DNA from: Antedon mediterranea
Lineage: Eukaryota > Animalia > Echinodermata
DNA length: 64,000 nt
Assembly (NCBI RefSeq): GCF_964355755.1
Contig: NC_092671.1
Coordinates: 33,614,304 to 33,678,303, forward strand
Reading direction: 5' to 3'
Part shown: piece by piece, positions 5,581 to 61,604 of the stretch
How the letters are laid out: each line of letters starts with the position of its first letter
Numbering within the stretch: position 1 is the stretch's first letter
The notes under the pieces: generated by a model
Seen by the model: the letters and a program-made list of their open reading frames with translations, nothing else
What the model was told of the DNA's origin: nothing
Databases searched by the model: none
Position numbers and translations under genes: made by a program

Positions 5581-8500
5581 TTAGTTAATCACTTCTGAAA
5601 TAAAAATTGTTTTTACTCTTAAAAGACAAAACAAATTCAACCCATTTAGGCCTACTGGTAGTCAGTTTTAAATTAGTTCTTTTGGTCAAAGTGAATAATC
5701 ATTATGGAATATTCAACAAACTAATTTAAAAAAAAGTCAAGGGGACAATTATTATATTATCTTTAATACTGTAATGCCTTGTAACCTAAACTCTCTTTTT
5801 TGCCACTCAATATCCTACAAATAATAATGGTGTTTTCTATAGACCTTCATTATCATACTGTGCAACTGGCCTATGTATTTTCTCAATTAACATATTATTA
5901 TTATTGAAAAACATCACAATTTGTATTTATATTCAACATAATCAGTTTACTTATTGCCTTGAAAGTTAAAAACTTAAATACAATATTGAAGTGTACGACA
6001 TAATATTATATAGATTTATTTAAACTTACTTATTTATCTTTGTTCTAAAATTGAGTTAAAAATCTTACCTATTTTGTTCACCTGCTTGCTTCCTTACATA
6101 AAATAAAAGAAATAATTAGAATATCCATCAATTAATTGTCTTAACTGGAATGTTGTAAAACAAATAGCCTAGGAAGAATAGTATGTTATAGGAAGTTGGT
6201 GGTACACATTTGACATAATTACATATTTTACTTATGATTAGGTTTAGTTATAATTTGTTATTGTTGTTTCAAAACTTCAAATGCGGCGAGCTTATCCATT
6301 CGAAAGTGTGCACACATTCGGGTGAATTTAAAATCAACTGAGTTGAATACTTAAATGTTCCCCTCTTCAAACTCTGGACACACTGAGGTTTATACGGTAG
6401 CAATTATAGGTTATTAAATGCAAATGGTAGGAGTAGAGTATGACGACACAACTGTTTATCTCCGTGGTTTGAACACGGTAGTTACACACCAATTGGTATT
6501 GTGTCAACAAAATGCATTTAACGGTACTTAAAATGAATATGTAAAAACGTTTTTCTAATAATACTATTTTCAAATAATTCTATTGAAAATTCTATTAAAA
6601 ACTGGATGCCTATTACAAACGCATCGGATTTTTCAAAGTATTAAAATAAATGTATACAGCTAAATCATTCCAGACTCACCTCCATCCCGACGGACTCTTT
6701 CATCTGAAGTGCATTCTAATGAATAGTATCAAAAGTATATAGTAATTAACCAGAGAATAGTAAAATTAAATTTGTAATTCAATCAATTATTTGTTTGTCT
6801 TATCAATATTGTCAAATGAATTATAACACAAAACTATGGTTATACATTTTTTAACCATTTAACATAATCTAATAATAATTATTAACTTAGCCTAATTATA
6901 ATGTACACGGGTTAAATTGAGTATGACAAAGTATAAAAATAATTATTGTTTATGATTACAAGGGGTAAACTAATTTCACGAAGTTCTCGTTTGGTTAGCC
7001 GTTCTCGATTGAGAACGTCAGGCCGTAGGTCACCTAATTGTGTGAGGTTCTTGTTTGGTTAGCCGTTCTCAATTGAGAACGTCAGGCCGTAATTGACAAG
7101 TTGACATATGCATTGCCTTTGCGTTAGAGAGACCAGTAACGTATTTGCATTATATATGTATATTAAAATTAAATAAAATTGAATTAATAATAAATAATAA
7201 GTATAAATCAATTAATCAATGTCTAGGGTCACACAACCAATCTAAAGCTCATGGATATAATACAAGTGATCGACTACTATACCTTCTTGGCTTAGATAAA
7301 TTATACTATACTACACTAGATTAGAATATGCATGTTGCAAAATATCTAAGTGCTGTGAATATGTGCAATGTATAACTATAATATTTTTTTTTATTACACG
7401 TCCAAATGTATTGTTTATTATAAATTTATTTTAGTTAAGATCATCAAGCATAATTTTGATTCTTAGTCTAATTCTCGAATCACTTTATGATACTACGGTT
7501 TTATTGTTTAATTCCTACATAGTTACCAATACTTATCACCAGCCTGATTGCCTTCTGGAGTGCATTCTATTGAATATAATAAAGCAGATCATTTGAAATT
7601 GCAATGATTGTATGTATTATCAATATTATTAATGATAATCATGATAATATAACATAACTTAGGTTAATAAGTTTTGATAAATTATTAAAAAATAAAATGT
7701 CTCGAATAATAAATTAATCAAAATACCGTTATAAATTACTTATTAGAAATTTAGAAATATTAATTTATTATTTGTTGACGGGTGTGACAAATTTAAGGTA
7801 TTTTACAAATAACTGTAACTGTAATTATTTAATTTATCATTATTTTTTTTTACAGGTTTTCAAGTAATTTATTCGTGTTTTAAAATTATTCCGATCAGGA
7901 ATGTGTAGTTATTCACATATCTCTACCTTCCCGGCGGATTGTGTTATGACCTGAAATTGATATGAATAAAAACTATTAATGATTCGGTAAATAAGATTGT
8001 TTGTATTTCATAATTATGACTTTGATAACATGAATTACGATATAAATAAAATATTAAACCTTTGATTTTTTATTAGTTTAAAAATGTAAACAAATATAAC
8101 ATTTGACTGTATTTGACCAGGGAGTTGTAACATTTTACAACTCCCTGATTTGACTTACTTTCTTTATTTATTCCAGAAAGAATAACACCTGGATCTGAAA
8201 GAAGAAATTATGTCAGGTTTAGTTTCAGTTGTTTTAAATTGTTATGTTCGTAAATAAATGAACCACGCGTTAAAACGTACATAGGAATGTGTAATGCATC
8301 TGTTTTTCTTTTCCATTTTCTTATACATTATTATTTCACAGCAAGATTTTGTTCTTTTTTTTTATTAATATAAAGCAAAATGTGAATAAAAATGATGAAA
8401 TAGATCGAATATCCAATCAAGCAAAGGAGAATAGGCCCTAATTAGTACCTTATATTGTCATTGTTATTTTCACCTACAAAATAAAAAAATTGTTGATTTC

Positions 8501-9483
8501 AGATAATATAACAGCAATTGGAAGAGTGAAACCTTGATTAAACCACCTAATCAAATACCACCCTGATAATAGTAAATGTGTCCTGCGTTGAACAGGACTT
8601 TTGAGACCAACTCGAAATTTCCAACAAACTTTATTGGCTACACAGTATCTGGCTTAGAGTTAAACACAATTGCTCTGAGAACTAGCTACATCATTACGGG
8701 AGTTATCAGCGTGTTTGATTCGATAACATAATTTGAAGCTTTAGGCATTAAGCGCTATAGTAATCACAATGGTATTGACAGTGTACCTGCAATGATTTAT
8801 GATTACTTACCCTCACTTTTCCCAAAACCTAAGTTAGAATGAAATATAAAACCTATCAAATATACAGCAACAAAAGATAGCAGGCTCCTGTAAATAAAAC
8901 AAAATAGAAAAAAAGAAATAAATTAAGCATTGAGAATTGCAACATATTATACTTACTAGATTTTTCAACATCTTCAATGTATCGATTTTTCTTAAAATAG
9001 TAGGCATAATACGTTAGTTGTATATTATTTACGAAAAAACATGAAAATAACTTTTAGTATTGTTTCACTAATGTACATGCATTCTTCTTTATAAATTACC
9101 ACTCAGGAGATAAATAAAGATATACAATTGAATTGCTGACTTTAAAGTAGACTTTATACTATGTCAACATACATAAATACAAAACAAGTAATATCATACA
9201 TTTATGTTTCATAAAATATCATATTGCTTCACACCCTAATTAGTATATCGAAATAACGTGACTGCAAAATAACAATATATCAATATTTATACTACGAGAT
9301 GCAAGTATTTAATTGTAAGCATCAGTGTATCTGTTTACCAATGAATAATCTTATTTTTTCTGAATATGGTTTGTTACATAGACACTCATTGCATCTCGTA
9401 GTAGGCCTATTGATATTATTATCAATAATAAAAGCGCTAAATAGATAGACCCACTTAACAAATACTTACAGTTTACCCAACAT
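5581..9483 (-). CDS. Micro-exon secreted precursor gene A (signal peptide plus IRR/RVRR spacer exons and short payload exons)
   Basis: Minus-strand exons with GT-AG ends: 9470-9483 (ATG TTG GGT AAA CT|gtaagt), 8811-8887 (SLLSFVAVYLIGFIFHSNLGFGKSE), 8159-8194 (36 nt, DPGVILSGINKE), 7927-7950 (24 nt, HNTIRRE), 6680-6703 (24 nt, ERVRRDG), 6069-6092 (24 nt, SKQVNKI, weaker aag acceptor), and a tentative terminal exon 5581-5594 (EVIN*). Joined: MLGKLSLLSFVAVYLIGFIFHSNLGFGKSEDPGVILSGINKESHNTIRREDERVRRDGGSKQVNKIEVIN*. Confidence 0.75.
6980..7092. repeat. Short tandem duplication (~63-bp period)
   Basis: GTTCT.GTTTGGTTAGCCGTTCTC.ATTGAGAACGTCAGGCCGTA occurs twice. Confidence 0.85.
8118..8147. mobile_element. 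30-bp TIR-only insertion with 7-bp TSD
   Basis: atttgac|CAGGGAGTTGTAACATTTTACAACTCCCTG|atttgac. Confidence 0.85.
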
Positions 9484-10148: not shown

Positions 10149-13070
10149 ATGATGCTAAGTAAACTGTAAGTATACATTACAAAATGATACAGTACCCGGT
10201 TTAATACCGTAGTCTATGTGCGTATGTACCATGTGTACTTTTACGTACGCGAAGGTATATTATCATTCTATTGCATGGTCTAATAGTATGATAAACCCTA
10301 CCATGGATAATAGGTCTAAACTACAATTGAGCTGCTCATGCGGTGTAATATCAGTGAAACATGTTGGGAAAACATCAACATTTTACCAACATCCAATCTA
10401 GAAAAATGGATCAAGTTTATGAAACGATCAGTATTTTTAAAAATTCAGTAACCTATATATATTCCCTACTTTGACGTAATTGTAATTTATACAAAGTACA
10501 TGTGAACAACAAATAAATAAATAATAAAGTGATCAATCAATATCTGGTAACAAACTAAAACTATCTAGCTATGTCTTTTACAGAAGCTTGTCATTGTTCG
10601 TGCTTGCATTTTTGTTTTATATTGACTCGGGCTTTGGTCAAAAAATTAAAAGTAGGTAATCTTTCGGATACTTCTTTAAGTTTTGTAGTTCATATATGCG
10701 TATTCAGCATGTTTCAGAATTTTTGCTTGTTTAAAATATGCTTTTTTTGTGTTCATCTCAGATTATCACATTTTCTATTATTTTTTTCCTTTTGTGTATA
10801 CTCTTATTTTATACCATGCATATTACTCTTAAATTAAATTTCCATTTAACTAACAAATCATCATATACATATTATTTTCTACGTATAGTCCTTTCTTTAT
10901 AACATACCGGTACCGTATTATCCATTAATACAATTTAATTAATAATCCATTACCATACTATTTATTTTATTTTATATATTTATCTATTATAATCGCACAG
11001 ACCTTCAGGTACTTAAATAATGATAATTTAGATTAGGCATTTTTCAGAACCTATTAAAAAAAATACAATATCATGTTTTGCTGCACGAGAAAAGAAGAAC
11101 AAGCACGAGTTCAAAGTAATTGAACAAATGCATTTGCGTATTTTGGCAAAGGGTGGCGCCCCCAATTTGACGTATTTTGACAAAGGTATTGCGTATTTTG
11201 GCATGATGATCACCAACCCTGATCTAATTGTATATTTTGGGTTATCAATAAAACGTATAGATACGTACTAAAACAAGACACCCGAAGTTTGTACAAGAAT
11301 AAGCATTATTTTAAAGTAATGAATATTATTACAAAGAGCAGATCACTGGTCACTGGACCACCACAAACAAAAGAAAAGAAACTCATGAAGAACAAGATAA
11401 CAAGGAACGTGTGTTTTCTTACAAAGACCTTACATACGCATATAGTTGCGGAACCAAACCAAAGCAACATACATATATAGAATTGTAAAACTCAGAAATA
11501 AATATTGCAAACCAGCTGAAATGCAAAATATTTTGTTTCAGAAACTCTTCCGCCTGGAATACACAATGGATGTAAGTAACAAATATGATTAATGAAATAT
11601 TATTTTCTATAGGCTAAACACTGAAAAACAATGTAAATACGAAAAAATAGGCGGCCTAATACATACTCAATTATCATACCCAATATCAATAGAAATAAAC
11701 AAAAACACATATAAAAGACAAATAAATAGTTGCACAAAGAGATTCGACTACACAAGTATGAAAAGTATGACTGAAAAAATGAAAGTAAAGAACATGATTC
11801 TCCACAAACTCCTGGCGAACTATTCTTATTGTTTGAAAACAAGTCACACATTAATACTTTTATTTACTGCGTTTCAGATCATGACAGAATTGGTCGGGAT
11901 GTCGGTGAGTAATTAACTAAAAGTTAATAAAACCTAATTAATTGAAATAAAAAAAATATTTGTCCTTAGGATTTCTTCTGACGAAGAAATGTCGAAAATT
12001 CAAATTAAGGTATGTTGAATTTTTACTGTGATGTAACCTTGTTGCTTGCTTGCTGGAACCCTTTATGTATTTACTCTCTTTTAGATAATGACAGAATTCG
12101 TCGGGATGAAGGTGAGTAACTCATTTATGCCTAAAGTTACCAGAACTTTAATAATCGAAATACAACGGTCGGGAATGTGTTTAACTCATCACGAGTGACG
12201 GCGGTCAACCGCCGAACTGTCGCTTATCACACATTATTGGCCTGATGTTAATCGGGTTTAATTTATAAAAAGTAAAAATATAATACATAAGTAAGCATCC
12301 CATCCTGTCCACAATCAATCTGACTGAGATGGGACACGTCATACACCAATTTATCCTTATTAATCGCTACATTTTTTTTTATTTCAGAAAAGAGCAGAAT
12401 TAGATGTTTGGATGAAGGTGAGTAGTTTTTATAAGATAATGAACTGTATTCATCCAGCTTGAAGCAAATACAAACAGGACGTAGGCCTACAACAAAACAA
12501 ACTGTACAAAAAATACGTAGAACATAATTATAACCTTTGAATGGTAAAAATAATTACCAACGTAAGGCACATAACCTACGGTACTTAAAAATAATATCAT
12601 ATTCAATGTTGTACTGTTGTACTTATTCTTAAGTGCAGCAATTTAGATAATTCCTACACAATGTGTTAACCTATACTTGTGAACGTGGGGAAAATACAGC
12701 TATGTTACCACACCTTGGTATTATTTAGGTTAAGAAAGTAAGCCTACTGCGGTACTGCTAGATCCGATTTATAATAAATAATAATTGTGCATGATTGCTA
12801 CTTTATAATAACTGCTACGCACCGACGACCAAAATCCGAGTGCTTAATTCACGTTTTTGTATGGCATGGAATTTAAAATTCAATTAAAGATGAAAGCGAT
12901 GGAACAATAATTGAAGTCTACATAATATCAAACCTTTTGTATTTTTTTTTCGAGAAAAATTATTTCCAATTGTTTTTATCTTTTAACTCATGAAGATATT
13001 ATTGTTTCCATTTAACTTTTCTTAATTTCTTTTTTTTTATTTACAGGAATAGGTAGACCTCCTAAAGAAT
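10149..13070 (+). CDS. Micro-exon secreted precursor gene B
   Basis: Exons: 10149-10165 (MMLSKL|gtaagt), 10584-10651 (SLSLFVLAFLFYIDSGFGQKIK), 11542-11571 (30 nt, TLPPGIHNG), 11878-11904 (27 nt, HDRIGRDV), 11970-12009 (40 nt, frame-breaking), 12085-12111 (27 nt, NDRIRRDE), 12388-12417 (30 nt, KSRIRCLDE), 13047-13070 (24 nt, IGRPPKE; may instead read on as a terminal exon GIGRPPKECK*). All have polypyrimidine-AG acceptors and GT donors. Confidence 0.78.
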
Positions 13071-15148
13071 GTAAATAACAATGTTAAATATAATCATGTT
13101 GTTTTCAAAACTTTTTCATTAATGTATTTAACTTTATTTTGGTTGATCAAGCGCATAGTTCATAGTTGATTTTCATTTCCGAAAAGAAAATTCGTTTTGA
13201 TATACAATACAAGAAAAGTACAAAAATATAACAGAGCTGCAAAATTAATTAAAAAGGTGCATTAACTAAGTTAATTAAAAAGCATGATAGTTACAACATA
13301 AGATATATTATTAGGAATACATTAATTCTCAATCATGACTAAAACTACTAATAGTTATGTCAAATATCAATAGGCCTGTAAATTAATATCAGAACAAAGT
13401 GAAATTACACTCTTCCCTGCTATTATTATTATTACAAATTAATTCAAATTGAATGTAAAATATACAATCAATGAACTTTGTTTCTGTGTCACATACAGCA
13501 GCAGTGTAAGTATAAAGGCATATTAATAGAAACATAAATAAATAAAACACTAAAGTTACCACAAGAGATCTACAAGACTGTTGTAATGTCACAGACATTG
13601 GCCCTCTAGAGGTCAATCTGTTTAATGACATTCTTATTAATTGTCATTTCTTCTGAAGAAGCTGTTCAAGCAGGACAGCGAAAATGTCAAGCAGCTAAGT
13701 TTTGCTAATTTGTGGGTATTTTTTTGAAAGTAATTAGAACATTTTTAATCAACTTTCTATAATTCTTTTAATTTGAACATTAAATGTTTGTTTAAATGTA
13801 CAGTATGTTTATAATTTTATTTTTGTTTACTTACTTGTAATCATCATCCGGACAAACATGCTCACTACGAAAACTGCATAAATATAACATGAACACTACC
13901 AACATGTTTTAATGAGAATAATACTATATGGACGTCGTCTATATGTGAGACATTAATACAAACAACATTTGCTCATTATTATATAGTCTTTGTCCCCGTC
14001 GCACCAAGTTTCAAAATGTTTTGCATTTAATATGTTTTCATTGTAATATAACTATAAAACGGTAACTGACGACATTAATGAAACAATAACAAAATCAAAC
14101 AAAATAACAGGTTGTGAATAAAAGTTCGACCCACCAACATTATAACATTAAATACGAAAGGGGAAACATTATTATATAAACTAATACAATATAAAAGATT
14201 ATAAAGCTAAACTTTACTTTAAATCAATGTATCCAATATTATCTGGTCGTATAAAATACTATTATAATATTTAACGTTTATCACTAGATAATAGTAAATT
14301 GTTCTTTTTCTGTTTTTGTTTTTGTTCTTAAATGTTAAAGTTGTAGATGTAATTTTTATATCTACGTGGATTGAATTCTATAACTATAGCTCCATGGTAT
14401 TTAATAGAGTTCTTGATCAAATTATTTGTATATTTAGGAAGAATATAGTCATATTTATCAAATAATATATTAGGCGTATTTATAGCCCTAAATAAATAGT
14501 AAGATGGTTCTCACATTTTTATTCAAACTTTAGCTATGCATTTTGATTTGTATGAAATAACTAATGCCTTTAATTAACTGTTTGAATAATAAAACAAATT
14601 ATTTTTAATAACTATTAATTTCGAAATTTTATCACGGATTAGTAATAATAATTAATAATAAATGATAATTGAATTATTCCATTATTCATAAAAATATAAT
14701 TACATGAGAAACGCCAGATGTTTTTTTAAATTTTTTTTTTCATTGACCTTGATGATTGGTACATGGATGGATTAACATATACTTATTTTTAAAATATTAA
14801 AAATTAGTAATTAGGCCTATTTGCTTTTGGTCATTCTTCAGCAAAATAAGATGATAAGGCTATGCGTAACTAAGGCAGGCTAGCCAGCGAGCGACCAATC
14901 AGATATGCTTACCCAGCCAGATCTACTGACATTTGGCTAAATAATGTAACAAATATCGTATCGGTAAATTATAACATTTCACATCCCTTTTAAAATTTTT
15001 CATTTCATTTCATTTATTTCACTATCATCATCGCAGACTAAGCTGAATTACAAAGATATTTACATTTTCCCAATATTAAAATTTGTATAAAAATATAAAA
15101 CCAATGATAATTATATATAAAAAAAGATGCAATTTACACAAGAAATAC

Positions 15149-21143: not shown

Positions 21144-21521
21144 AGATTTAATAATATGATCCAAAAGTAGTTGTTGGTCAGAAGAATTAAGTGGAATATA
21201 TATATTCCACAAACTATAATAGAGGATACAGCTCTAGGAAGCCTCTTCGGTCTTATAAAAACCCAAACACACTCTAGCTCTTCGGGTACTACTATTTCAG
21301 GTATTCTGCGCGACAGAAATTCAGAATTAACATATACGGCCACTCCACCACCCTTCCTATGCGTTCTATGACCTCCAGTGGCGCTGTGCAACACGGCGAC
21401 ACAGCTCGTCTCATTGTCTCACTGTTGTTACTCATTTTTTGACGTTATTTTCGTATATTTGGACTGTATTGTATTGTGGAAGAAGTCATTTGATTTATAC
21501 ATTATGTTGTATGTGAAAGTA

Positions 21522-37019: not shown

Positions 37020-37760
37020 CTTAAGCCTTGTCGAGAGAAGTGGTTAAAACAGCCAAATACCGGACATTAACGCCTATTAAACTACAGTAGTCTTATAATT
37101 GATCATTGTCTAGTTTTAATATTCAGTTTTCTCTTGTAATATTAATTAAGGTAAACATTCATTAATGAAATAAAATAAAAAGTAAATCAAACAAGAATTA
37201 AAACAAAAATGATAATGTAAACTTATACGTTTCTATTCGCTTCTCTGATCCTCAGTGGTTTATGAAGATAAATAGTAACCATCTAAAAATACAATCAACA
37301 TAGGGTGAATCAATTCATTACTCCATGGTTATCAAGGATGTAGTTTAGGTTCTAAACGGAGTTTATTAATATTGGTGGACTAACATAAAATAGTCAATAA
37401 CTACAGACTTGGGGCAAATCTACCGTTATGATGAATGTCTATATGACCTCACAGTATAAAGTAGAAATACAATAAACAAATGATAAATTTGTTGACATCA
37501 TATTATTTATTCTATGTATTCTTTATTTCAAGCCAACAGTGTAAACACCAATTACCAATTATGATACTTGCATAATGTAATATAGTATTGTTACGATGCT
37601 AAACTTGTTTCTAAATGTAATACGTATAACACTATTGCATATTTTATTTCTAAATCAGAGGCAGTGAATTGTTGCCTATCTTCAGTCTGAATTCACCGTT
37701 TAAGTGAGTGTAAGTTATGGATATTTGACTCACCACTTTCAACGTTTATTCACGTATACA

Positions 37761-38045: not shown

Positions 38046-38081
<36 letters not shown>

Positions 38082-38157: not shown

Positions 38158-38446
38158 TTGATATATTGACAAAATGTCGCTTATAAAAAGACAAAATACA
38201 CAGTGAATTTAAAAATAAGTCCAATGACTCCCAGTTGAATTTTATTCTTTGAATTGTTGTTTTAGGCCTGCAGGCCTATGTAATCAATAATGTATATAGT
38301 AATAAATTGTAAAGCAAATTAAAAGCTTAGTACATTTGATACTAACTTACCATCACCATTACCAACACCACCAGCAAAACCGTCAAATTGGCATTGTCCA
38401 AAGTTAGCCTGAAATAAAAACACGACTAGAAACACAACGATCAACG

Positions 38447-38448
38447 TT

Positions 38449-38480
<32 letters not shown>

Positions 38481-38577
38481 TTGCTGTTGCTGCTACTGCT
38501 GCTGTTGCTGATGTTGCTGCTGTTGCTGCCGTTGCTGCCGTTGCTGCTGTTGCTGCTGTTGATGCTGTTGCTGATGT

Positions 38578-38612
<35 letters not shown>

Positions 38613-42721: not shown

Positions 42722-45700
42722 TTAGTAACCATCTAAAAATACAAGTGAAACATTACTAATTTATTAGATTAAAATGTACATACAATAATGATATAATAGT
42801 TAAAATTATTCACACTGTACAGTTTATGGAAATTGTGAAAATTGTATTATTGATGACAACTTGTATGCATTCTTGTATATTCTCTTCATGTTAAGATATA
42901 GTAGACACAAAAAAGATATAACCTCTTTCGATTTGCTATGACTGACGACCAACCTACGTCATGTTTATTTATTGTGATACTGGGACGTGTTTCTTCGCTT
43001 CTGACTTCGACACTTAAAATTAAGTTGATAAACCGTGCCGTGATTGGTCAATAATTTACTCGTGGTGACCTAGCGTTTCGTCCAAGTGGGAATGAAGCTT
43101 TAGTAATTTAATGATTGAGTGACGAATAATTGTGTATGTAAAAGTATTCGATATTAATTATATTTTCTTTTATCTGTAACACCAAAATATTTACTTCGAT
43201 GCCAACTTTTAAGTTGTTTTGACTATATTATTATTAATATATTGTGTTTTTTTAATATTATTCAAAGACTTACCGCTTTCCAAGTTTGTCTTTATTGGGG
43301 GACCACGAGGGCCTGATACAAGGAGTAGAAAAGAGAAAAGTTAAACACATTTTTACCAGCACAAAAATGATTGGTTATGTTAAGTTTATACTTATGTGTA
43401 ATAAATACTATCAACATAACTATTGGTTATAATCACCTTCTTCCCTACGGATTCTGTCATGATCTGAAATAAAAACAATTAGTGTATCAATAATGTATAC
43501 AGTAATGTGTGACATTTACAAAGATCAGATCTCGGTCCTCTAATCCGCCTAACCACCAATCATTCCAAAACATTTTTAAACTTTCGATTCAATTAATCAA
43601 TTCCAATTGACCCAGAAATATAATGAGGTAATATAAATCAGTAAATGCTGGTTACCGATTTCTTACTTTAGTTTAACATGGTTTAAAAACACAATTCTGC
43701 ATCTGTCAGTAAACTGACTCGTAGCTATATGACTTGCGATAGTCATTTGCACTCTTTCTACTTACAGCTGCACAATAGGACTGATTTATTATTTGTTTTA
43801 TTAACATCATACCAGAGTGACTCCTAAAGTGATATTGAAAGTTTTATTCTCTTGAATATGCCATTTTAATTTCACATACTGTAATTAATTTGTTCTCTTT
43901 CTTGACCAAAAATTGAAATAAAAAATATATTTACCTAAAACAACTGTAATTTAAAGCAAACCAAAGTCTGGAAGTCATTGATTTTTTGGTTGAATTTAAT
44001 GGTTTATTTTGTTGTTTATTTTGTATGTAAGTGGCGAAATTATTAAAACTGCGAAATGGTCTATATATAAAGTCATCTTTTTATTAATCTTAATGCTTCA
44101 TGTTTTTTGGGGAAAGGCCTAATATAGCTAACATTAGAACATGAAAATTTTCGTCGTTGTGACAAACATAACTCTGTCTTCAGCAAGTCCTATTTTATTT
44201 AGAAACATTCTGGTCGGTAAATATTTTAAATTGTCCAGTTCGTACATTACAAATACAATGTATTTAGGTATACATTTATATAAAAGTACTGAAGCGTGTT
44301 ATATAACAAGATGTGCTTAACATAGCAAATGTTGCGAACAAATAATTATTGTAAAAATATAGCCATTTCATCATTTTAAAATACTAATATGGATCGAGCA
44401 ATACCAAAATGAATTTAGGAAAATCACTTTTTCATTTTATGTTTCATTGTTTATACTCTTTCTTTCACCTACCTATAATTTCGAATTTTCATTGAAGCAT
44501 CTCTGTAAGGATAAAGGGAAAATCATTAATGTAATTGGAACATTTACGGTACGGATGCGTAGAACAAGTCCAACAAGAGAAGATTCGTAACTCTAATATA
44601 ATTTCCATATGGTAAAAACGACATTTAAATTAATTGTAAGTACACCGGTGCTGGTGCTGTACGCCTTCAATGCTGTACGAGTTTTGATTAACCAATCCAT
44701 CACGTCGTACTTGGTCAAGCATACGATCAGCTCCCGCTTGGACGCACAAAAGTATTCAAGTTGCTTGTGATTGGTAAACTTACTTAATAGGGTGATTTTA
44801 CCACATGGAAAGAATGCTCAACTGCTTAAAAAAGATTCTTTATGCCTACGTACCATCATCCCGACGGATCCTGCGAGTGAGAGCTATCTAGAGGTTTTTT
44901 TTTTAGTTACATATAGGCATATTACCATTCTTAATCTTTAATCGATCACTTGTTGTTATATTTCATTCCAAGCTGTCCTTGTCTTTCTGTCATGATGCCA
45001 AATAATGGTCTATACTTTATTTATTTATTTTTTTTTATTTTATTAATTTCGGCAAACACATAATTTTCATTTCATTTATTTATTTCACTTTACAAATATG
45101 TAAATATAAAGTGGAGGAGCCTAAAAGAAAGCAAAGCTTGTGGTGAATAGGCTCCTCAAAAAAAAAAAATAAATAAAATATAAATAAAATAACACAATCA
45201 GTAGAAACTCTAAAAAAAAACAACAATTTAACTAATATCTTTTCTCTAACACATAAGTTTAACATGTTTAAAACTAAAAAAACAAGTAAAAAAAAGATTA
45301 TATAAATTATTTAAGAAATATCCAAATATATCAATAATAAAAGAATCAATAATAAAAGAATTTACAAAGAACCTTCAACCAATAATAGTTTAAATTGACG
45401 TTTAAATAAAGCACAGTTATGAGATTTTTAAAGAAATACAGGAAGAGAATTCCAGAGTTTAGGTCCAGTGTATACAAGGGTATTCATTTTAAGACTAGTA
45501 AATGGCAGGTGATACTGATCTTTTTGTCTTGTTTGGTGAGTGTGGTATTGTTTATTTTGAGTGAATTTACTGGATATTATAGGGGTAAGTGTCCGGCAGT
45601 TAATTGAAATCTATAGAGATCCTCAATTTTTAATATTTTATTTTTTTGAAAGAGATCTTGGGTGTGAGCACGAAAAGTTACCCTGGAGATAATTCTGACA

Positions 45701-48700: not shown

Positions 48701-51700
48701 ATAGATTATTAGTTCCAAGTCATTAAAAAACATAATATGGATCGAACAAATACTGAAATGTATTCACTTTTTCAGTTTGTATTTTTCTTTGTTCAACCTA
48801 CCAATTCGGTTAACTCCCTTTTGACCTCCTCTTCCTTGGAATATCTCTGTAAAGAATTGAAAAAGACGTTGCCTAAATTGAAACATTTGACAATATACAT
48901 TGACTTTATTGTGTTTTCCTATGTATTTGTCACATTTCTACATAGCTATGTCGATAATTATTTATATTATTTAGGAGTAGGTTTGCAAATTTATTACATT
49001 TTAACGCTGTTCTTTTTGACTGTTTTATTGCAATGTTTTATTCCTACTCACCCCTATCTCGACGAATTCTGCTACCATGTTCTTCTGAAATGCAATAAAA
49101 CAAGAATACACACGATCATGTATACTTCACTGTCATTTTTTAAACATTCTGTTATGGTGCCAAATAATGGCCTATAATTAGTTTGTTCCTTTATTATGTT
49201 ATCCACTTTTAAATAGTTACTGAAGTGAGGTTTTCTATTTTCTTTTATAATAATTATGCTATAATTAAATTGTTTGGTCTTTATGTAGTCTGTTGCTGAT
49301 GAAAAAATAACGTTGCATCAAGATGATCGTCATCACTGGTATGACCTGAAATGCAGTACATTATAGAAGTTAAAGGCAGCCATGTTGTGCAACATGGCGA
49401 TTGTTCTGGAAAAGGAGGTTATGTGAGATAGGTTTTTAGGGTTAGGGGTTTAGTTATTAAAGCTAAGGCCGTGAAGATAAGCTTATGGCCAATATATACT
49501 GTATAGTATAAGGTTTTGTACAGATTATTAAGGAGGAGGAAGTTAGTTGGTGCATTTAATTATTAATATAACGCATTGCAACATAACGCTAACTTTTATA
49601 CGTTATTTAATAATAACACATTATTTATAGATTATTAGTTCCAAGTCAATTTAAAATATGGATCGAGCAAATACTGAAATGAATTCACTTTTTTCAGTGT
49701 GTATTGCTCTTTCTCCCACCTACCAATTCCGCTACCTATTCGACCACCTCTTCCTCCAACGGGGAATATCTTTGTAAAGGTAAATTGAAAAACCGTTACT
49801 TAATTTGAAACATTTGACAATATACATAATCTTCATTCTGTATTTGTCATATTTCTACATAGCTATGTTGATAATTGTGTATACTATTTAGGAGTAGGTT
49901 TGCAAATTTATTACATTTTAACACTGTTCTTTTTTTACTGTTATTTTGCAATGTTTCATTCCTACTCACCTTCATCCCGACGAATTTTGCTACCATGCTC
50001 TGAAATGCAATAAAGAATAATAAATGGTCATATATAGTTCACCGTATTGCCCTGGCCCTGGTCTAGTAGGTTCTGTATAATAGAAGGTATATGATAATAA
50101 CTTAATTAGCGTTATTTAAAAAAAAAACAGAATATAAATTGCATTATAGATATATTTTTGAGACATGTGAGCCCGATAAACAAATACAAGGAAACAAGTA
50201 TTGGTTGTAAAGTTATTTAATATGAATGGCAAGTCATCGTTGCAGCATGCACATAAAAGGAAAACACAAAAAAGGAACATTGAGAGTCTCTGAAAGGGCC
50301 AAATTACATGTCTCAAAATCGTAATTGAAAACAAAATAGAGAGGGAGTGGAGGGAGGGAAGTGAAAATTATTTTACTTAGACAAAAACTGGCGTGGTAAT
50401 CTTTTGACAGCGTGAGGTGAAGAGGATGAGATGCTTACGCTGTCAAAAGATGATTGCGAGGGCGCCCCGCAATCACGTGATTTTGACACATGTGAGCCCG
50501 ATAAACAAATACAAGGAAACAAGTATTGGTTGTAAAGTTATTTAATATGAATGGCAAGTCATCGTTGCAGCATGCACATAAAAGGAAAACATAACAAAGG
50601 AGCATTGGGATGCTCTGAAAGGGCCAACACAGTTGGCAACGAAGGGGCCAACGAAGCAGCCCAAATTAAGTGCAGGTAGAACCGATGACAAGCCATTCCG
50701 ATGTTGGTGCAACATATGTTGACACCCAGAACGTATAGAAACTATATACATAGTCTACCTGGAGCAACATGTGTTGACTCCCGTACCCGGTTGACCATTA
50801 GAATCTGATAGGTGGAGCAACCAAATATTGACATCGAAAAACGTATAGAAACACCTACATTAGTCTACCTGGAGCAACATGTGTTGACTCCAGTACACAT
50901 TTAAACATTTTAATTAGGTAGGCAGTGTAACCAAATGTTGACACCGAAAAATGTAAAGAAACAATCTCCATTAGCCTGCCTTAGTACGCGTTTGAGAATT
51001 GAGTTTAATAAACGGTGCAACCATGTTGACACCGAAAACATATAAATAACTTATTAGTCTACCTGGAGCAACGTGTTGACTCCGATTGAACATATGATTA
51101 TAATTGGCGGTGCAACCTATGCTGTCACCGAAAGAAAACAAAAATGAAAAAAGTAAAACGATATACAGAAAAAATAAGTATCAAACTTTGTTTAAGCTTG
51201 ACGCTTAATGCCCAGTCATGCTTAGGAAATATGCCAACCAGCCAGCACCCATGTTTACAATGCTGTATTTGACAAAGTTATGTAGTTCGACCATCGTCCA
51301 AAAGTCATAATGTCTTGGTGAGAGTGTCCAAGTGATTTGATGAAGGTGTTAAACTGTGTATGTTTCAGACTAGCATGGCGAGCTAATTGTTTAAGCGACG
51401 AGGAAATCATTTTCCTATTTACTGGTGTTCCATTTTCAAGCAGGAAGAACGGGCCTGCCTTCGGTGGTCGCATCCTGACCTTGACGACACTGGACATATA
51501 TTGGGCTTCCGGATTTTTTGGTGCAAGACGAAAGGAGGTGAGGAACGCTTAGAGTGTTTGAAAGAGTTGAAGTTTATTTGCACTTTAGTGGCATGTACTG
51601 TGATATCAGTTAGCATTAGTGTGTGTTCTGCGGCCTTGGAGACTACTGCTTCACTGGCTCTGAGGCATGCGAAGTAACATATTATGAACAAGGCTCTGTA

Positions 51701-54700: not shown

Positions 54701-57574
54701 AGCTCGATGAATTTTTTGACAAGGTAGGGGTTTGAGGAAGAGAGCTGCCGGTAGGTTCGGCTTACCGACATTAATCTCAACCACAGAAGTTACCAGGGTT
54801 TTGACGATATGCCTCATGTCCTTTAATTCTTTATTTATGTCAAGTTCAGGTACTGGCACGGTTATTTTTTGGTGCCGTATTTTTTACCTCTTGTTAGTTC
54901 TTTTCCGTCCTGACATGGTGTATCTGTAAGAAAATCATATAATGAATGCTGTACTTAAGAGCATGAGAGATAAAACACCGCCGTATGTGGGGGTAGTTAA
55001 TGAACCAGCATAAGTAATTATGTGGTGGTAGTAGGGGAACCAGCATGAGTCATATAATGAATGCTGTACTTAAGAGCATGAGTGATAAAACACCGCCGTA
55101 TGTGGGGGTAGTTTATGAACCAGCATAAGTCATTATGTGGTGGTAGTAGGGGAACTAGCATGAGTCATATAATTAATGCTGTACTTAGGAGCATGAGTGA
55201 TAAAACACCGCCGTATGTGGGGGTAGTTAATGAACTAGCATAAGTAATTATGTGGTGGTAGTATGGGAACCAGCATGAGTCATATAATGAATGATGTACT
55301 TAAGAGCATGAGTGATAAAACACCGCCGCATGTGGGGGTAGTTTATGAACCAGCATAAGTAATTATGTGGTGGTAGTAGGGGAACCAGCATGAGTCATAT
55401 AATGAATGCTGTACTTAGGAGCATGAGTGATAAAACACCGCGGTATGTTGGGGTAGTTAATGAACTAGCATAAGTAATTATGTGGTGGTAGTATAGGAAC
55501 CAGCATGAGTCATAATAAATGCTGTACTTAAGAGGATGAGTGATAAAACACCGGCGTATGTCGGCGTATGAACCAGCATAAGTCAATTATGTGGTGGTAG
55601 TATGGGAACCAGCATGAGTCATAATGAATGCTGTACTTGGGAAACCAGCATGAGTCATAATGATGCTGTACTTGGGAAACCAGCATGAGTCTTAATAATT
55701 ATAATGAATGATGTACTTGGGGAACCAGCATGAGTCATAAGATGAATGCTATACTAACTATATAAACCATTCAGATGTGTGCAAAATATTTGCCAGTTTA
55801 GCGTAGCATCAAGAAAGAAAAACAACAAGTTATTATTTATTTCTTTTGGATGTAAAACAATGGGAAAATAATAAATGGTGTCAACAGTGTATTGCCTGGC
55901 ATTTTGTTTTGTTTATTCTGTTTAATTATGTATTTATTTTCCTCTAAAATCCGGTTCCGGATTGTCCACAGTGACTGCAGTAGTAGTAACAGATAATAAG
56001 ATTGTTGTTATTTAATGGCATAAGTTAGCATAAGAGGCTCCGTGCATTAAAGCAGACCTTACTTTTTAACTAGGTCATTCGATCCGAGGTCGATTATCAA
56101 AATATCTGGCTTGAATGTTTCCACTTGATTTACAAAATTAGTTAGGTCGTTTATCTTTAGGCCGGGCACCCCCCAAAGAACATATTATCATAGTGATGAC
56201 TGATTCGGAAGTCAGGCAAAGGTCGATGTGAACCAAGTATGGAGTCGGACGAATTACCCAAGCCATGATGGAAAGCGAGGCTTTCGCTCAAACCGGAAAC
56301 AAATGAGTTGAGCCTAGGCAACCAGACAACATAATTACAGTAAAGTATGAAAAATCGAACAAAATGGGGGTAAGATAAGGTGTTAGATAAATTCCAGTCA
56401 AAGTATATTGTGTGAGTACACACAGCCTATAAGTGTATGAGGATAAAATGAACTGGTAAATGTAAAAGTGAAAATTATTTTACATAGCCAAAAACTGGCG
56501 TGGTAATCTGTTGACAGCGTGAGGTGAAGAGGATGAGATGCTCACGCTGTCAAAAGATGATTGCGAGGGCGCCCCGCAATCACGTGATATTAGCTCAAAT
56601 GCTTCATTCATCTTCATTTTATAATACTACATTTTACGTATTTCAAAACATTGAGGAATACCACTTACTTTCTATATTATTACCTAAGGCAGGCTCAGCA
56701 TAGAAAAACAACAGTACCGGTAATAAAAATATAACAACCGACAATTGGAAGCTTCTGTAAAATAAAGAAAATAGACTACTTGGTAATTGGGTGGGATGGT
56801 CGCGGTTTGGAAGAGGTTCCGACATAGCCATTCTATACACAGGAAGGCAACTAAACAACACCAGATTTGGTTCCGATTACCTCACTTACTCCCGGAATGT
56901 GTAAAATTGCATTGATTATCTAAACATACAGTAGTAGTTATTTTGTTGTGGAGAAACCAGAATTAAATCTCTCTTGAGCTTATTTGTTTTCCCGGCTTTC
57001 TATTTATCTAATACTAAGAATAATAAGAATCTCTAATAACTTATCAAGTGTGAAATAAAACGAATGAATAAACAGTATGTCTAAATATGCATGCGATTGC
57101 CTACATAAGCAAATTGAACAAAATGTTAATTCAATTTTGCAAATAACACCAAACGAGCGATTGAATATACGATAATGTTTTATATAATAAATAATATAAT
57201 AATAAATTAAATGGCAAATTGATGATGTTGGTATTAGTGGCTGAAACTCAATGGAGATACAAACTAAAATAAGCGAAAAGCTAAATCAAAACGTAAAAAA
57301 AGTACAATTAGCAGATAAAGTAATATATTTTATGTATATAATATAATAAATATTTATATAATAAAGTAATATATTTATATAGTACCTGCTTTTATAACAG
57401 TAGTCCATTACAAATAGAAGATCTAGATTAGAAACCTCTACGCTGGCAATCCAATCAAGTCCTAAATCAAAATCAAGTGGTCATGACATCGAATAGTTTC
57501 TTGAACTGTTAATTTACCTAAAAATACTTGAAGCAGATTACGTAATCGAAAATTACTTACAGTTTACGTGTCAT
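42722..57574 (-). CDS. Micro-exon secreted polyprotein gene D (five RIRR/KIRR spacer exons, four payload exons)
   Basis: Exons: 57561-57574 (MTRKL), 56669-56754 (SFQLSVVIFLLPVLLFFYAEPALGNNIE), 49970-49999 (HGSKIRRDE), 49724-49771 (IFPVGGRGGRIGSGI, acceptor mutated to caa), 49052-49084 (EHGSRIRRDR), 48802-48846 (IFQGRGGQKGVNRI), 48227-48256 (HGSRIRRDE), 44854-44883 (LTRRIRRDD), 44473-44502 (MLQ*KFEII), 43437-43463 (HDRIRREE), 43274-43312 (PRGPPIKTNLES), 42722-42732 (DGY*). All internal micro-exons are 3n long and phase 1-1. Confidence 0.8.
45060..48200 (-). mobile_element. Degenerate CR1-like LINE (endonuclease and RT) in an intron of gene D
   Basis: ORF 47319-48200 (HFNIRS, GLTETWL, RGGGVAIY, YRPP, MGDFN). 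RT fragments include NYRPISLL (46411-46683) and LFADD near 46150. A-rich (AAATG)n-like 3' end near 45065-45085. Confidence 0.9.
48200..50020. repeat. Tandem duplication of a ~0.8-0.9 kb two-exon module of gene D
   Basis: Spacer exon and flanks recur at 48227, 49052 and 49970. Intron blocks such as AAAGGCAGCCATGTTGTGCAACATG and ATATGGATCGA.CAAATACTGAAATG recur, with an older copy of the latter near 44390. Confidence 0.92.
53044..53224. mobile_element. Tourist/PIF-Harbinger-like palindromic MITE inside the DIRS element
   Basis: tta|AGGGTCTTTCACACCTG...CAGGTGTGAAAGACCCT|tta, a near-perfect 181-bp palindrome with 3-bp TTA TSD. Confidence 0.85.
53812..54935. repeat. Direct duplication of ~445 bp (offset 679 bp) in the gag-like region
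   Basis: Near-identical ORF triplets at 53904/53956/54053 and 54583/54635/54732. Confidence 0.95.
54937..55750. repeat. 115-bp tandem array (about 6 copies plus shorter derivatives) in the DIRS element
   Basis: TAAAACACCG recurs at 54971, 55086, 55201, 55316, 55431 and ~55544. Confidence 0.95.
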
Positions 57575-58473: not shown

Positions 58474-59263
58474 TTTTTAGTCGCGTGGAAGCGACTCTAT
58501 AGTTCACTATGTCGGTCGGTTGGTCGGTCTGTCTGTCTGTCTGTCTGTCGGTCCGGTATCACTATGCGTTTTATCGCTTTCTGACCTTATCTTCATATCA
58601 GTTTAATCTAGCTAGGTCAATTTTTCACAGTATATTCCTTATGGCCAGGAATCAATGTGGTTATGTTTTCACGATGCGCAATAAAAAATTACGCGGTCTA
58701 CGCACGATTTAACGAAATCACGTTTGTAATCATATCTTCACAACCATGAATCACAATTAAATATAATTTGGTACTCATAAATTTCAGGGCATAAATCATC
58801 ATATGGCAATACAATTACGTGCGTAGCGCATGTAACGCATGCGTACGCGCGCTTAAAATTTTCAAAATTTATTTTCGATGAAATAAGAGTACATTTCAGG
58901 CAATTTTAAGCGTTTACAAAATTGCCATGAGTGCGCATATTTTTGCGCGCGCACTGCGCGTTAAATGTTCTTGCCCACTCTTTTTGCCCGATTTCTGTTT
59001 TCTTGACTTACTTTTCAACTCGAAATTACGTTATACGAGCACGTCGAAAGTGACAGGCTACGCACGTGTAAATTAAAAAAATATAAATGTTTTTAAACAT
59101 TTCAGTAATTCCGGTGAGTATAGTTCACTATGTCGGTCGGTCGGTCTGTCTGTCTGTCTGTCGGTCTGTCGGTCTGTCGGTCTGTCTGTCGGTCTGTCGG
59201 TCTGTCTGTCGGTCCGGTATCACTATGCATTGTAGCACGCAACTTAATGGCTGTTGGCCTTGT
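58474..59263 (+). mobile_element. DINE-1/HINE-like (Helentron-associated) non-autonomous element
   Basis: Starts in a T run with hairpin AGTCGC-gtggaa-GCGACT. Two copies of TATAGTTCACTATGTCGGTCGG-(GTCT/GTCG)n-GGTCCGGTATCACTATGC at ~58498 and ~59119. Confidence 0.6.
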
Positions 59264-59404
59264 TTAGTTAAACTTCATAAAAATGCATAAAAACAATAAT
59301 CAAGTGCAACTAAGCGAAATAAAAGCAAAACCTACACGTTCATAAACAAACGATTCATATAATATTACTGTATTGCGAGTAGGCCTATGTATAATTATAT
59401 TCAG

Positions 59405-59671
59405 ATCATGGCAGAATCGGGATGAAGGCGAGTAAGTAATTTAAATTTAATAACACTAATTTAAATATATATATTTTAAGTGTTCATATGTTTTTAGAAA
59501 ATATCCCAGTTTATTTTAAAGATGTCAAGTAACATAACATAAACCATGACTATTAAAACTGTAAAAATCAAGTACAATAGGCATAATATTGAACTATTCG
59601 TATTGTTTGAAAAGTTTTTAGTACTTTGATTTACTGCGTTTCAGACCGTGAGAGAATCCGTCGGCAAACAT
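59405..59671 (+). pseudogene. Orphan spacer micro-exons (remnant of family member E)
   Basis: 59405-59431 (27 nt, DHGRIGMKA|gtaagt) and 59645-59671 (27 nt, DRERIRRQT|gtgagt). Intron context 59596-59690 aligns by eye with 11821-11925 of gene B. No signal-peptide exons were seen upstream on +. Confidence 0.6.
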
Positions 59672-60004
59672 GTGAGTAATTTAACTAAACGTTTTATTTA
59701 GATAAAACCAGATGAAATATAACGTTTCAAAATATTCATGAATTCTTTTCGGCTCTTTGTAGATTAGATTAATTGATGACAATAAAATCACTTTATTATT
59801 GGTATAAAAAAGCGAAAATGCCATGTTTTTACCTTTAAAAATGGTAACCATAATTTTTTTAACAGTTTTATTGCGTCGATTTAATGGTTGTTAAAGGTAG
59901 ATAACAGATGGATTAAAATAGAAGACGTTTAAACAAAACCAATCACCAATTTAGTTTATTAAAAGCTGATGTTAAACACTTCGTACTGCAGTGTTCCTAT
60001 TATC

Positions 60005-61604
60005 ATGTCAACTAAACTGTAAGTATATACCATATAATGTTGTGTTACCTCCTAGTGACATAACATTCAATATCACTATTATTAGTACAATAATATACTT
60101 TCCATATTGATTTCTGTGAGATTTACTGATATTGTTATTGCACCATATTTCGGTGGCATAGTATACAAATAATAAATGTTTATGAGAGTAATGGTACAAA
60201 TGATGGCATGAGGTGAATGATGAAAGATTATATTTCACCAAGGCAAAGCCAAGTTGATATATAATCTTTCATCATTCACCAAACACCATTATTTGTACCA
60301 TTACACGAATATAAACATTCACTGTTTTTGTTTTATTGTTTTTCAAATAAAAGGTTATACAAGGCCAACATTTGATTCACATTGATTAAAGCAGTAACAT
60401 TTAATTTGTGGTCATATTGTATTTATATGGATTTTATAAACACACCTACTGTATTGTTAATTATGTATCGTATTAACAAACGACCAAATAATCCTAGGCC
60501 TAGCAAGGCTAAAACGCATAGGCATAGCCTAATACTAACTAGGCTGAAAGGTAGCAATACCAAATACAAAACTTTGGCAACTGGAACTCATCGTCTTATA
60601 GAGATGTTCACATTAATTAATGAAAATCCTACAAACGATCTAAAGCTAATTTAAATGCCTTTTTGATCTAAATTAGTACACATATATCTCTCCGAAAAAT
60701 GTACTTTCATCGCGAAACCAGTCATAACAGTCAATCTTCGCGGCGAAAGTACAGAACAGGTGGCGCTGTTGTATTTCAAAAGCAATAGTATGATAAAAAT
60801 ATTTTCAAAAGCGAAAAGGTATTTTTTTTAGTACACAATAAAAAGGACTATTAAACGATAGTTCAATAATGCGTACCATTGCACGTCATGTGACCACAAT
60901 CATCCAATCAAATGACAGGAATTTATATAGGTGTTATATAATATATTCTAGTTCTGGTTTTGAAAACCAAAAGTAACACAACTCCGTTGTAGATACGGAG
61001 CAATCAGTTAAATATCTGCAATGTTGTCAGTAAGCAGTTATATATTGAATTAGAAACTACTATTGCCACGAGGTATTGATCTATGAAATGAGGTTGAAGA
61101 TAGAAATTTACTTTCAGGGATAAGACCACTTAACACAACAATAAAGAACAATGTACACCTGGTGGTACCAATCGAAATTCATACATCAATGCCTTTTTAC
61201 ACAAATATTTTCTCAGATAAATAAATCACGCTAAACTTTTATTAATTTACACTTAAGTATTGCCAATTTTCGCGCGAAGTGAAAGCATCAGCTTTTACGT
61301 TTGCGTAAAAAATCATTATCTACACATAACAAACAAAATTAATGCTATAGAAAATATGGCTTTAAAAAAGAGAATAGCTACTTCCACCTGATGTCTGCAA
61401 CTGAGCTGTTTTCAATCGCAAAATGGGATTTGCAAGATGGAAATGCGTTGGCCTATCCCGACGCTTTTGACTTTCCAACAAATTCTTCTTGTGGGAAAAC
61501 AGGCTTTTATAGAAATCCTCAAAGAGTGATCTACACAATATTTCATTTTTATTACAGAGGCTCGTTGGTTTTGGCATTTTTAGTAGTGTTTGTGCAATGT
61601 GCAA
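60005..61604 (+). CDS. 5' part of micro-exon family gene F (signal-peptide exons; rest probably beyond the window)
   Basis: Exon 60005-60018 (atcATG TCA ACT AAA CT|gtaagt) and exon 61558-61604 (tacag|A GGC TCG...GCA A|gtaagt) give MSTKLGSLVLAFLVVFVQCA, with the same phase-2 and phase-1 introns as genes A, B and D. Confidence 0.72.

Follow-up and report, generated by a model that had tools for sequence, protein, structure and literature searches.

Symmetric micro-exon genes for putative secreted multi-peptide precursors in Antedon mediterranea, a feather star

Precursors of the apidaecin type consist of tandem units of a spacer, a basic site and a short Pro-rich peptide; the units are near-identical and are trimmed at E-A/E-P dipeptides. 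A peptide family of a feather-star arm organ is said to comprise many secreted precursors without known homologues, some of them toxic to fish; it may or may not be the family reported here. Schistosome micro-exon genes (MEGs) encode a signal peptide and have very short exons, mostly multiples of three in length, with long introns; alternative splicing and duplication give them variation, automatic annotation misses them, and they are described as specific to Schistosomatidae (10.1101/2023.06.21.545858, in the part of the text available). Spider cupiennin precursors carry a signal peptide, varied linear peptides and short conserved linkers cut after Arg; the linkers, acidic 11-13-mers with iPQM/PQM ends, are cut out, and the peptides are strongly cationic (PMC7889660, available part). 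In crinoid neuropeptide precursors (PCNPs) a signal peptide precedes several peptides that basic sites separate.

Four loci (A, B, D and F) in a 64,000-nt stretch of the A. mediterranea genome (NC_092671.1, positions 33,614,304 to 33,678,303; "the window", in whose numbering all positions are given) have features in common with these systems. The signal peptide and the symmetric micro-exons below 81 nt by which MEGs are defined (10.1101/2023.06.21.545858) are both present. Unlike MEGs, however, the feather-star loci have two alternating exon classes, one with a repeated basic site; neither "furin" nor "convertase" appears in the available part of the MEG text (10.1101/2023.06.21.545858). No MEG motifs, MEG sequence matches or Pfam matches were found for the loci, and we infer that the likeness is one of convergent architecture, not homology. 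Unlike the spider linkers, those of the feather star hold one R-X-R-R site each, and the products are near-neutral and Gly/Pro-rich; no exon-per-linker layout was seen in the part of the spider source available (PMC7889660). Assignment to the spider-type complex precursors, with iPQM/PQM acidic linkers and cationic amphipathic products, was rejected (net charge -3 to +1). In contrast to the apidaecin type, the feather-star payloads are not alike, and sites and payloads occupy exons of their own.

Shared exon design of four loci

The loci form two head-to-head pairs, A/B and D/F, and each starts with a 14-17-nt first coding exon followed by a signal-peptide exon. The exons of A, B and F, and two orphan site exons (E) in the D-F gap, are as follows.

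9470..9483, - strand: A, first coding exon, 14 nt, ending in phase 2
8811..8887, - strand: A, signal-peptide exon, 77 nt, phase 2 to 1; 10/25 residues identical to the D-type RefSeq protein
8159..8194, - strand: A, payload exon, 36 nt (model only)
7927..7950, - strand: A, site exon, 24 nt, with RR but without R-X-R-R; weak donor
7527..7554, - strand: A, decayed paralogue of a site exon; the alignment to the 6703-6680 unit shows that the homologous donor is lost
6680..6703, - strand: A, site exon, 24 nt, R-V-R-R; 34.9 bits leave-one-out
6069..6092, - strand: A, payload exon, 24 nt, weak AAG acceptor
5581..5594, - strand: A, likely last coding exon with stop (model only)
10149..10165, + strand: B, first coding exon, 17 nt
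10584..10651, + strand: B, signal-peptide exon, 68 nt; 11/22 residues identical to the RefSeq protein
11542..11571, + strand: B, payload exon, 30 nt
11878..11904, + strand: B, site exon without RR, 27 nt
12085..12111, + strand: B, site exon, R-I-R-R-D-E, 27 nt; 36.8 bits
12388..12417, + strand: B, site exon without RR, 30 nt
13047..13070, + strand: B, payload exon, 24 nt, weak donor
13499..13509, + strand: B, possibly the final coding exon, with a stop and an AATAAA about 30 nt downstream (uncertain)
59405..59431, + strand: E, orphan site exon without RR
59645..59671, + strand: E, orphan site exon, with flanks paralogous to B 11878-11904 (77% over 110 columns)
60005..60018, + strand: F, first coding exon
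61558..61604, + strand: F, signal-peptide exon, 47 nt; 7/15 residues match the RefSeq protein

The first-exon pattern ATCATG(NNN)2-3AAACTGTAAGT was found at all four loci, exactly where the preliminary description had placed it, and occurs four times in the window versus 0 in 200 order-2 Markov shuffles, a null that flatters the pattern because it was derived from the finding itself. The second exons had been claimed to complete a hydrophobic signal peptide in phase 2 to phase 1. Indeed, each has a polypyrimidine/CAG acceptor, an open frame of that phase and a best 11-mer Kyte-Doolittle value of 2.6-3.3 in the predicted frame. In A, D and F this frame exceeds the other two in hydrophobicity; in B another frame, interrupted by stops, scores slightly higher. 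Downstream of the signal exons of A, B and D, phase-1/phase-1 micro-exons of two kinds, site and payload, lie within the window. A generic splice-site scan returned multiple-of-three, stop-free exons for 15/23 sense candidates versus 0/9 antisense in the same regions (Fisher p 0.0009, with some candidates sharing a splice site and so not independent), and exon GC exceeded flank GC in 16/19 exons. We consider it highly probable that A, B, D and F, paralogous genes of the feather star, have their symmetric micro-exons spliced into secreted precursors.

R-X-R-R is the proprotein-convertase (furin) consensus. Twelve related site exons of 24-33 nt, with conserved R-I-R-R-D-E, are present in the window as proposed, but R-X-R-R is kept in only seven of them and RR in nine; B would thereby retain one intact site and A one or two. 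The broader convertase motif R-X-R/K-R likewise follows the signal peptide in 7/12 site exons, and the two RefSeq proteins described below have it 3 and 4 times. Leave-one-out scores of nine site exons were 22.4-36.8 bits (best of 60 shuffles, 21.7); indels put the other three out of register (-30 to 11). A non-synonymous allele was seen at 7941, in the P4 codon of the A site exon 7927..7950 (run X4). Among R-X-R-R codon changes, four were synonymous and three non-synonymous, an excess that is not significant (p 0.13), and net length differences among duplicated exons are multiples of three.

The site exons might instead be pieces of a dispersed repeat, the gene models having arisen by chance, as the orphan E exons (which have no same-strand first exon upstream in the D-F gap) and the repeat-rich window could suggest. 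Conservation, however, ends at the exon and its donor: between loci the site-exon cores are 76% identical, whereas the introns behind them are 52% identical, as in shuffles (52%; 25 pairs). In each gene the site copies also follow the sense orientation, and RefSeq models connect them without a break in the reading frame; a dispersed repeat is thus extremely improbable. Read as parts of genes, the sites suggest that the predicted precursors are probably cleaved at R-X-R-R by a furin-like convertase.

Locus D and its RefSeq counterparts

Locus D has the most cassettes in the window, site exons being numbered S1-S5 and payloads P1-P4.

57561..57574, - strand: first coding exon, 14 nt
56669..56754, - strand: signal-peptide exon, 86 nt; 20/28 identical to XP_071943191.1 and XP_071943192.1
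50043..50072, - strand: first payload exon, 30 nt, added to the earlier list
49970..49999, - strand: S1, K-I-R-R, 30 nt
49724..49771, - strand: P1 (IFPVGG), 48 nt, homologous acceptor without AG
49052..49084, - strand: S2, 33 nt; 9/10 residues match XP_071943191.1
48802..48846, - strand: P2, 45 nt; 14/14 residues match XP_071943191.1
48227..48256, - strand: S3, 30 nt; 9/9 residues match XP_071943191.1
44854..44883, - strand: S4, 30 nt, poor acceptor; without counterpart in either RefSeq isoform
44473..44502, - strand: P3, 30 nt, decayed, in-frame stop; without counterpart in either isoform
43437..43463, - strand: S5, 27 nt; 8/8 residues match XP_071943191.1
43274..43312, - strand: P4, 39 nt; 12/12 residues match XP_071943191.1
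42722..42732, - strand: last coding exon, D-G-Y-stop, ending as in XP_071943191.1
48403..50045, - strand: tandem duplication of a site-plus-payload unit with introns (49346-50045 versus 48403-49133, 76%, 760 columns)

When the genes were compared with the database, D-type A. mediterranea RefSeq proteins matched, with E 3.5e-4 for the signal exons alone. These are XP_071943191.1 (X1) and XP_071943192.1 (X2), uncharacterised isoforms, themselves computed models, that connect exons of the D type as the predicted frame requires. Five D exons (S2, P2, S3, S5 and P4) are 90-100% identical to them, and where both exons of a junction matched, the splice frame agreed at 7/7 junction residues, a figure that overstates the agreement, as phase-1 junctions favour E, D and G, which are frequent there. 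The first payload, 50043..50072, occupies the position of a divergent 13-residue segment in the RefSeq proteins (4/9 residues match), and P1 matches the last payload of X2 at 11/15 residues.

X1 and X2 differ in their 3′ cassettes, and window D differs from both in cassette number and order: X1 has the same 3′ exon order, while the first payload differs, the P2 cassette is present twice and a P1-like payload stands last in X2. The isoforms could be chimeras of tandem paralogues. For locus D, the proposed architecture of a multi-peptide precursor gene is supported by the two isoforms, annotated independently, with the same exons in the same frame; its modularity is supported by the tandem duplication and by these cassette differences. 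That each cleavage site and each payload has an exon to itself is true only approximately: the cut would fall within the site exon, and several cassettes are decayed.

No Pfam family was found for the isoforms, no function is annotated, and database searches returned no relatives outside Antedon. The first and signal exons of A, B and F, and the site exons of A and B, are homologous to the RefSeq family; no database counterparts of A, B and F themselves were found, and their payload exons match the RefSeq proteins at 2-4 residues only. With a database model found for only one locus of four, annotation probably underestimates the size of the family. Neither later F exons nor an F site exon were found in the last 2.4 kb of the window; the former probably lie outside it.

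Predicted peptides and their possible role

Variable payload exons of 24-48 nt interleaved with the spacers are present as the preliminary description held, but alternation is not strict, consecutive site exons occurring in A, B and D, and two payload exons are damaged. As a class they are Gly/Pro-rich (21% Gly and 14% Pro overall, with G-R-G-G motifs). Because the cut would fall inside the site exon, each product would consist of a site-exon tail (D-E/D-G), the payload and the head of the next site exon, its basic end trimmed. The predicted products have 7-24 residues and no Cys, and their net charge of -3 to +1 makes them near-neutral or acidic; in this they differ from the cationic amphipathic type to which most cytolytic or antimicrobial peptides belong, a point that tells against a role in defence. 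Payloads are very different among paralogues, with no motif common to all, although the 3′ end of the A payload 6069..6092 resembles that of the D payload 48846-48802 (4/7 residues).

Every internal exon is in the same phase, so cassettes could be duplicated, lost or skipped without frameshift, and a damaged cassette could be skipped with the remainder still read. Gene duplication, unit duplication and alternative splicing would jointly vary the peptide set. We propose, as an even call from sequence, that furin-like-cut, Gly/Pro-rich peptides from these micro-exon precursors serve defence in an external secretion. Taken by itself, defence as the role falls slightly short of even. Fast turnover, many paralogues and the lack of relatives outside Antedon are, we infer, typical of defence or host-interface secretions. 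The weakest step is that a secretory cell, of the skin or of saccule type, may release the peptides to ward off microbes, foulers or predators.

Lineage-specific neuropeptides, hormones or pheromones would have the same plan of signal peptide and repeated basic sites, and P2 and P4 are identical between the window and A. mediterranea RefSeq, as a receptor ligand might be. Against this, 0/9 products end in an amidation Gly, payloads have no motif common across paralogues, and the sites are R-X-R-R, whereas crinoid precursors use mostly K-R (PMC9793003, available part). In the available part of that work and its supplements no described PCNP held a resembling peptide or the loci's motifs, and IRR, RRDE and RRDG were absent from its precursor file (PMC9793003). 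We therefore rejected the classical neuropeptide/PCNP class, and the broader neuropeptide reading seems distinctly unlikely.

The same precursors, similarly processed, might instead yield structural material, as peptides or uncut disordered protein, for mucus, adhesive or refractive saccule content. This agrees with the Gly, Pro and G-R-G-G content, with near-neutral, Cys-free products and with a model of XP_071943192.1 in which a signal helix is followed by residues 40-130 below 50 pLDDT (single sequence, weak). Mucus secretion is also one proposal for the saccules, whose function is called unknown in the available part of 10.1101/2024.08.14.607903. Cut products of 7-24 residues and divergent paralogue payloads, however, suit a structural polymer poorly, and nothing in this analysis ties the genes to saccules; we regard a structural role as unlikely.

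Site and payload exons in one phase would let a multi-peptide precursor gain, lose or skip products without frameshift, a design known until now chiefly from the micro-exon genes of parasites, which lack such sites. Crinoids are slow and exposed, and the defence and saccule questions become testable with the exons named here, the probes and the exact masses of candidate peptides. A wider conjecture, rather unlikely in our estimate, is a crinoid-wide, genome-scale cassette library in which separate same-phase site and payload micro-exons are duplicated, reordered and alternatively spliced, and whose large set of peptides, specific to individual and species, is saccule content or chemical defence. 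If true, MEG-type exon combinatorics and convertase multi-peptide processing would be joined in a free-living deuterostome, in genes mostly missed by annotation.

Decayed copies and the neighbouring gene

Two further pieces (C) lie downstream of D.

38351..38408, - strand: Gly-rich exon-like piece, 58 nt, ending in phase 1, not symmetric (uncertain); possibly a relic payload
37260..37282, - strand: another copy of the last exon, identical to that of D over 22 nt around the acceptor; a relic or an alternative 3′ end

The family may be real with most window copies decaying relics, only a shortened D, perhaps with F, being active. A lost acceptor, an in-frame stop, three site exons without RR, the orphan loci C and E, the large transposon insertions in D introns and a broken adjacent transporter gene fit such decay. 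Yet in A and B the first and signal exons are undamaged, exon lengths are symmetric and the frames are open, though their introns no longer align to D's, and damaged cassettes are skippable, as X1, without counterparts of the decayed S4 and P3, illustrates. We consider this relic reading very unlikely.

The neighbouring transporter gene has an exon 92% identical to its A. mediterranea match, while the gene itself is broken, so the region holds decaying duplicates; the RefSeq isoforms and the best transporter match, whose contigs have the same length (40,927,303), are likely on one chromosome.

Architecture, duplication and decay of the micro-exon loci

The four paralogous loci, A (-), B (+), D (-) and F (+), were reported in the preliminary description to share a first coding exon and a phase-2-to-phase-1 signal-peptide exon, and twelve related 'site' exons (R-I-R-R-D-E) were said to accompany them; all of these were found as described. 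The first-exon pattern, itself derived from the original finding, has four matches in the window and none in 200 shuffles. Scored by leave-one-out, nine of the twelve site exons reached 22.4-36.8 bits (shuffle maximum, 21.7), and indels put the remaining three out of register. In a family-blind splice-site scan, symmetric and open candidates, which overlap in part, amounted to 15 of 23 in sense versus 0 of 9 in antisense (p 0.0009); in four flanking regions the same scan gave counts of 1/6 and 2/15. Between loci, the 19-nt core of the site exon is 76% identical, whereas identity in the intron that follows is no higher than in shuffles (52% vs 52%, 25 pairs).

The genes run from first exon and signal exon through a payload exon (variable, Gly/Pro-rich) to site and payload exons and a short, stop-bearing last exon, and every modelled internal exon begins and ends in phase 1. 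The models omit three exon-like pieces that are not symmetric and would shift the frame: 8473-8449 (25 nt), 5814-5786 (29 nt) and 11970-12009 (40 nt). The exons were hand-picked; a binomial test on their lengths is therefore circular and was not used. Later exons of F were not found within the 2.4 kb left in the window. A and B lie head to head 666 bases apart (9483-10149), as do D and F at a spacing of 2.4 kb (57574-60005). Among the upstream regions of the four genes, those of A and B are weakly similar, beating 200 of 200 shuffles, and no other pair does so; a bidirectional promoter in common or an inverted duplication are both possible readings of the A/B sequence.

D contains a tandem duplication of a unit made of site exon, intron, payload exon and intron (76% identity over 760 columns). 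The introns of the two copies are 87-90% identical and the site pairs 80-97%; the paired payload exons agree at 83%, interrupted by gaps of 6 and 3. Indels in exons come to multiples of three by net length only, the alignment gaps between payloads P2 and P3 being 4, 5 and 6. Decay is frequent: of D's payload exons P1 has no acceptor AG and P3 holds a stop, and in A one site-exon paralogue has lost its donor. For two orphan pieces the search found no first exon: E lies between D and F and consists of two site exons, and C has a second copy of the last exon and perhaps a relic payload. Of the 3′ regions, those of D and C are the one pair that aligns above all 200 shuffles. Long CAG/CAA-type triplet repeat arrays flank the 58-nt exon-like piece of C (37760-38830).

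RefSeq relatives of locus D and other searches

These genes are a real, uncharacterised crinoid family, partly corroborated, of multi-peptide precursors organised as micro-exon cassettes. Used as queries in an exhaustive profile search of 1.84 billion proteins, the four signal-exon frames gave three matches at E <= 0.001. One was XP_071943192.1 (isoform X2), with XP_071943191.1 (isoform X1) in the same cluster; both are A. mediterranea isoforms annotated as 'uncharacterized protein'. Isoform X1 agrees with D at 20/28 residues of the signal exon, 9/10 of site exon S2, 14/14 of payload P2, 9/9 of S3, 8/8 of S5 and 12/12 of payload P4, and the last residues are the same. At all seven junctions tested, the residue produced by the window's splice sites is that of isoform X1, agreement for which chance is not small (E, D and G are favoured there). 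Isoform X2 ends in a payload like P1 (11/15). RefSeq isoforms with exons of 27-45 nt presumably rest on RNA reads; they are computed models, and chimeras across tandem paralogues are possible. The other two profile-search matches were P0012, a low-complexity repeat protein, and a protein of 2696 residues with no matched stretch.

In the RefSeq isoforms there are two P2 cassettes and a P1-like payload comes last, whereas in the window P1 is second and P2 occurs once; the decayed cassettes S4 and P3 have no counterpart in isoform X1. Judged from these sequences, closely related genomes or paralogues differ in the number and order of their cassettes. Compared with the RefSeq proteins, the signal exon (56754-56669) is only 71% identical while payloads P2 and P4 (within 48846-43274) are identical, and on this basis D may combine the 5′ and 3′ ends of different paralogues as a mosaic, or its cassettes may be under gene conversion.

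With signal exons only as queries, no RefSeq counterpart like that of D was found for A, B or F. Of two word-indexed protein searches queried by signal exons, one gave 1509 candidates, none at E 10, and the other no candidate; the reach of these searches is low, because the RefSeq relative, present in that collection, was missed. In the ESM Atlas the D signal exon was unmatched, and the best match of the RefSeq protein (0.79, a plant Gly-rich cluster) was below the useful range. Pfam returned no families for the two RefSeq proteins or the four signal-exon frames, the PDB a single chance match (E 0.3), and metagenome scans no exact matches and 504 pattern matches, none of them confirmed. Contigs of sequencing runs X1, X2 and X4 (run labels, not the isoforms) were compared with 3000-10950, a stretch that covers A and the first part of B; of the 15 joints listed out of 57, none fell at a predicted intron. 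A run X1 contig (5524-5701) crosses the last acceptor of A unspliced; this run may be DNA and is hence silent on expression.

Predicted processing, products and role

Judged by eye with the -3/-1 rule for signal-peptide cleavage, the signal peptides of the family would stop at small residues whose positions are homologous, G-F-G for both A and B and A-L-G for D. R-X-R-R is the established consensus of furin-like convertases. The description of the spacers as RIRRDE with R-X-R-R stands for part of the set: seven of the twelve site exons have R-X-R-R and nine have RR, while five are without R-X-R-R. A furin-like convertase would cut at R-X-R-R, and the basic ends would then be trimmed. The predicted cut lies inside the site exon, and each product would therefore consist of the tail of one site exon, a payload and the head of the next. 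For the two RefSeq proteins this predicts nine products of 7-24 residues whose net charge runs from -3 to +1; Gly makes up at most 38%, Cys is absent and none has Gly at its C terminus. R-X-R-R codons have a synonymous excess in the expected direction that is not significant (p 0.13), and D-E codons appear unconstrained. Among the ten non-repeat substitutions listed relative to the runs, one is exonic: the run X4 allele at 7941 changes the P4 codon in A's first site exon, and processing may therefore be polymorphic. Units in the same phase could be gained, dropped or skipped without constraint, and this would account for the peptide variety and for the tolerated decay.

As to role, external defence, given expression, is a tentative assignment that falls a little short of probable, and it is the weakest step of the mechanism; structural secretion comes next. 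Fast birth and death within the cluster speaks for secretion at an interface. Neuropeptides are spoken against by the lack of amidation and of a common motif, and cytolytic peptides by near-neutral charge. That the genes belong to a library of spliced peptides that spans the genome and is linked with saccules or with defence is unlikely; the accessible part of 10.1101/2024.08.14.607903 terms saccule function unknown.

We found no description of the family in the literature searched, a scope outside which most subscription papers fall. A feather-star arm organ with many novel secreted peptide precursors has reportedly been described; if that report covers this family, the family is less new, though the layout of its exons may even so be new to the literature. 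Apidaecin serves as a comparison system. As far as the accessible parts of the sources go, the feather-star genes resemble schistosome micro-exon genes (10.1101/2023.06.21.545858) in exon design and spider complex precursors (PMC7889660) in product logic, but are members of neither. Nor is the family among the crinoid neuropeptide precursors in the text and supplement parts searched of PMC9793003, the rest of which could bear on it, and the accessible parts of PMC13079724, PMC11767717 and PMC11861897 hold nothing relevant.

Neighbouring elements

Neighbouring elements in the window
4249-4320 (-): tRNA-like sequence (41 bits, the sole Rfam match)
~18250-21400 (-), 24700-27450 (+) and 35000-36200 (-): broken LINE-like elements (by eye)
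21600-23330: large inverted-repeat element carrying tandem units of 10 bases (by eye)
~45100-48180 (-): broken LINE-like element inside D, directly after S3 (by eye)
~50200-56590 (-): insertion in intron 2 of D, retroelement-like, bearing a 266-aa ORF and internal repeats

The exons of an SLC22-like organic cation transporter (27918-34250, +) show 73-92% identity to A. mediterranea P0001. For its last large exon, identity to an organic cation transporter-like protein of A. mediterranea reaches 92% and 7/9 matches are crinoid, which places the window in a feather star that is Antedon or close to it. The copy in the window has in-frame stops and frame breaks and is likely a pseudogene. A single A. 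mediterranea contig has several near-identical transporter copies in its annotation. The genes of XP_071943191.1/XP_071943192.1 and the best transporter match lie on contigs of equal length and are therefore likely syntenic.

In Pfam, the 266-aa ORF in D intron 2 weakly resembles the N-terminal domain of an integrase (E 0.0018, which misses the cut-off), and a direct duplication of ~125 bases lies near both ends of the insertion, which we take to be a likely DIRS/Ngaro-type tyrosine-recombinase element. The tRNA-like match sits within a very high-copy repeat and is probably a tRNA-derived SINE.
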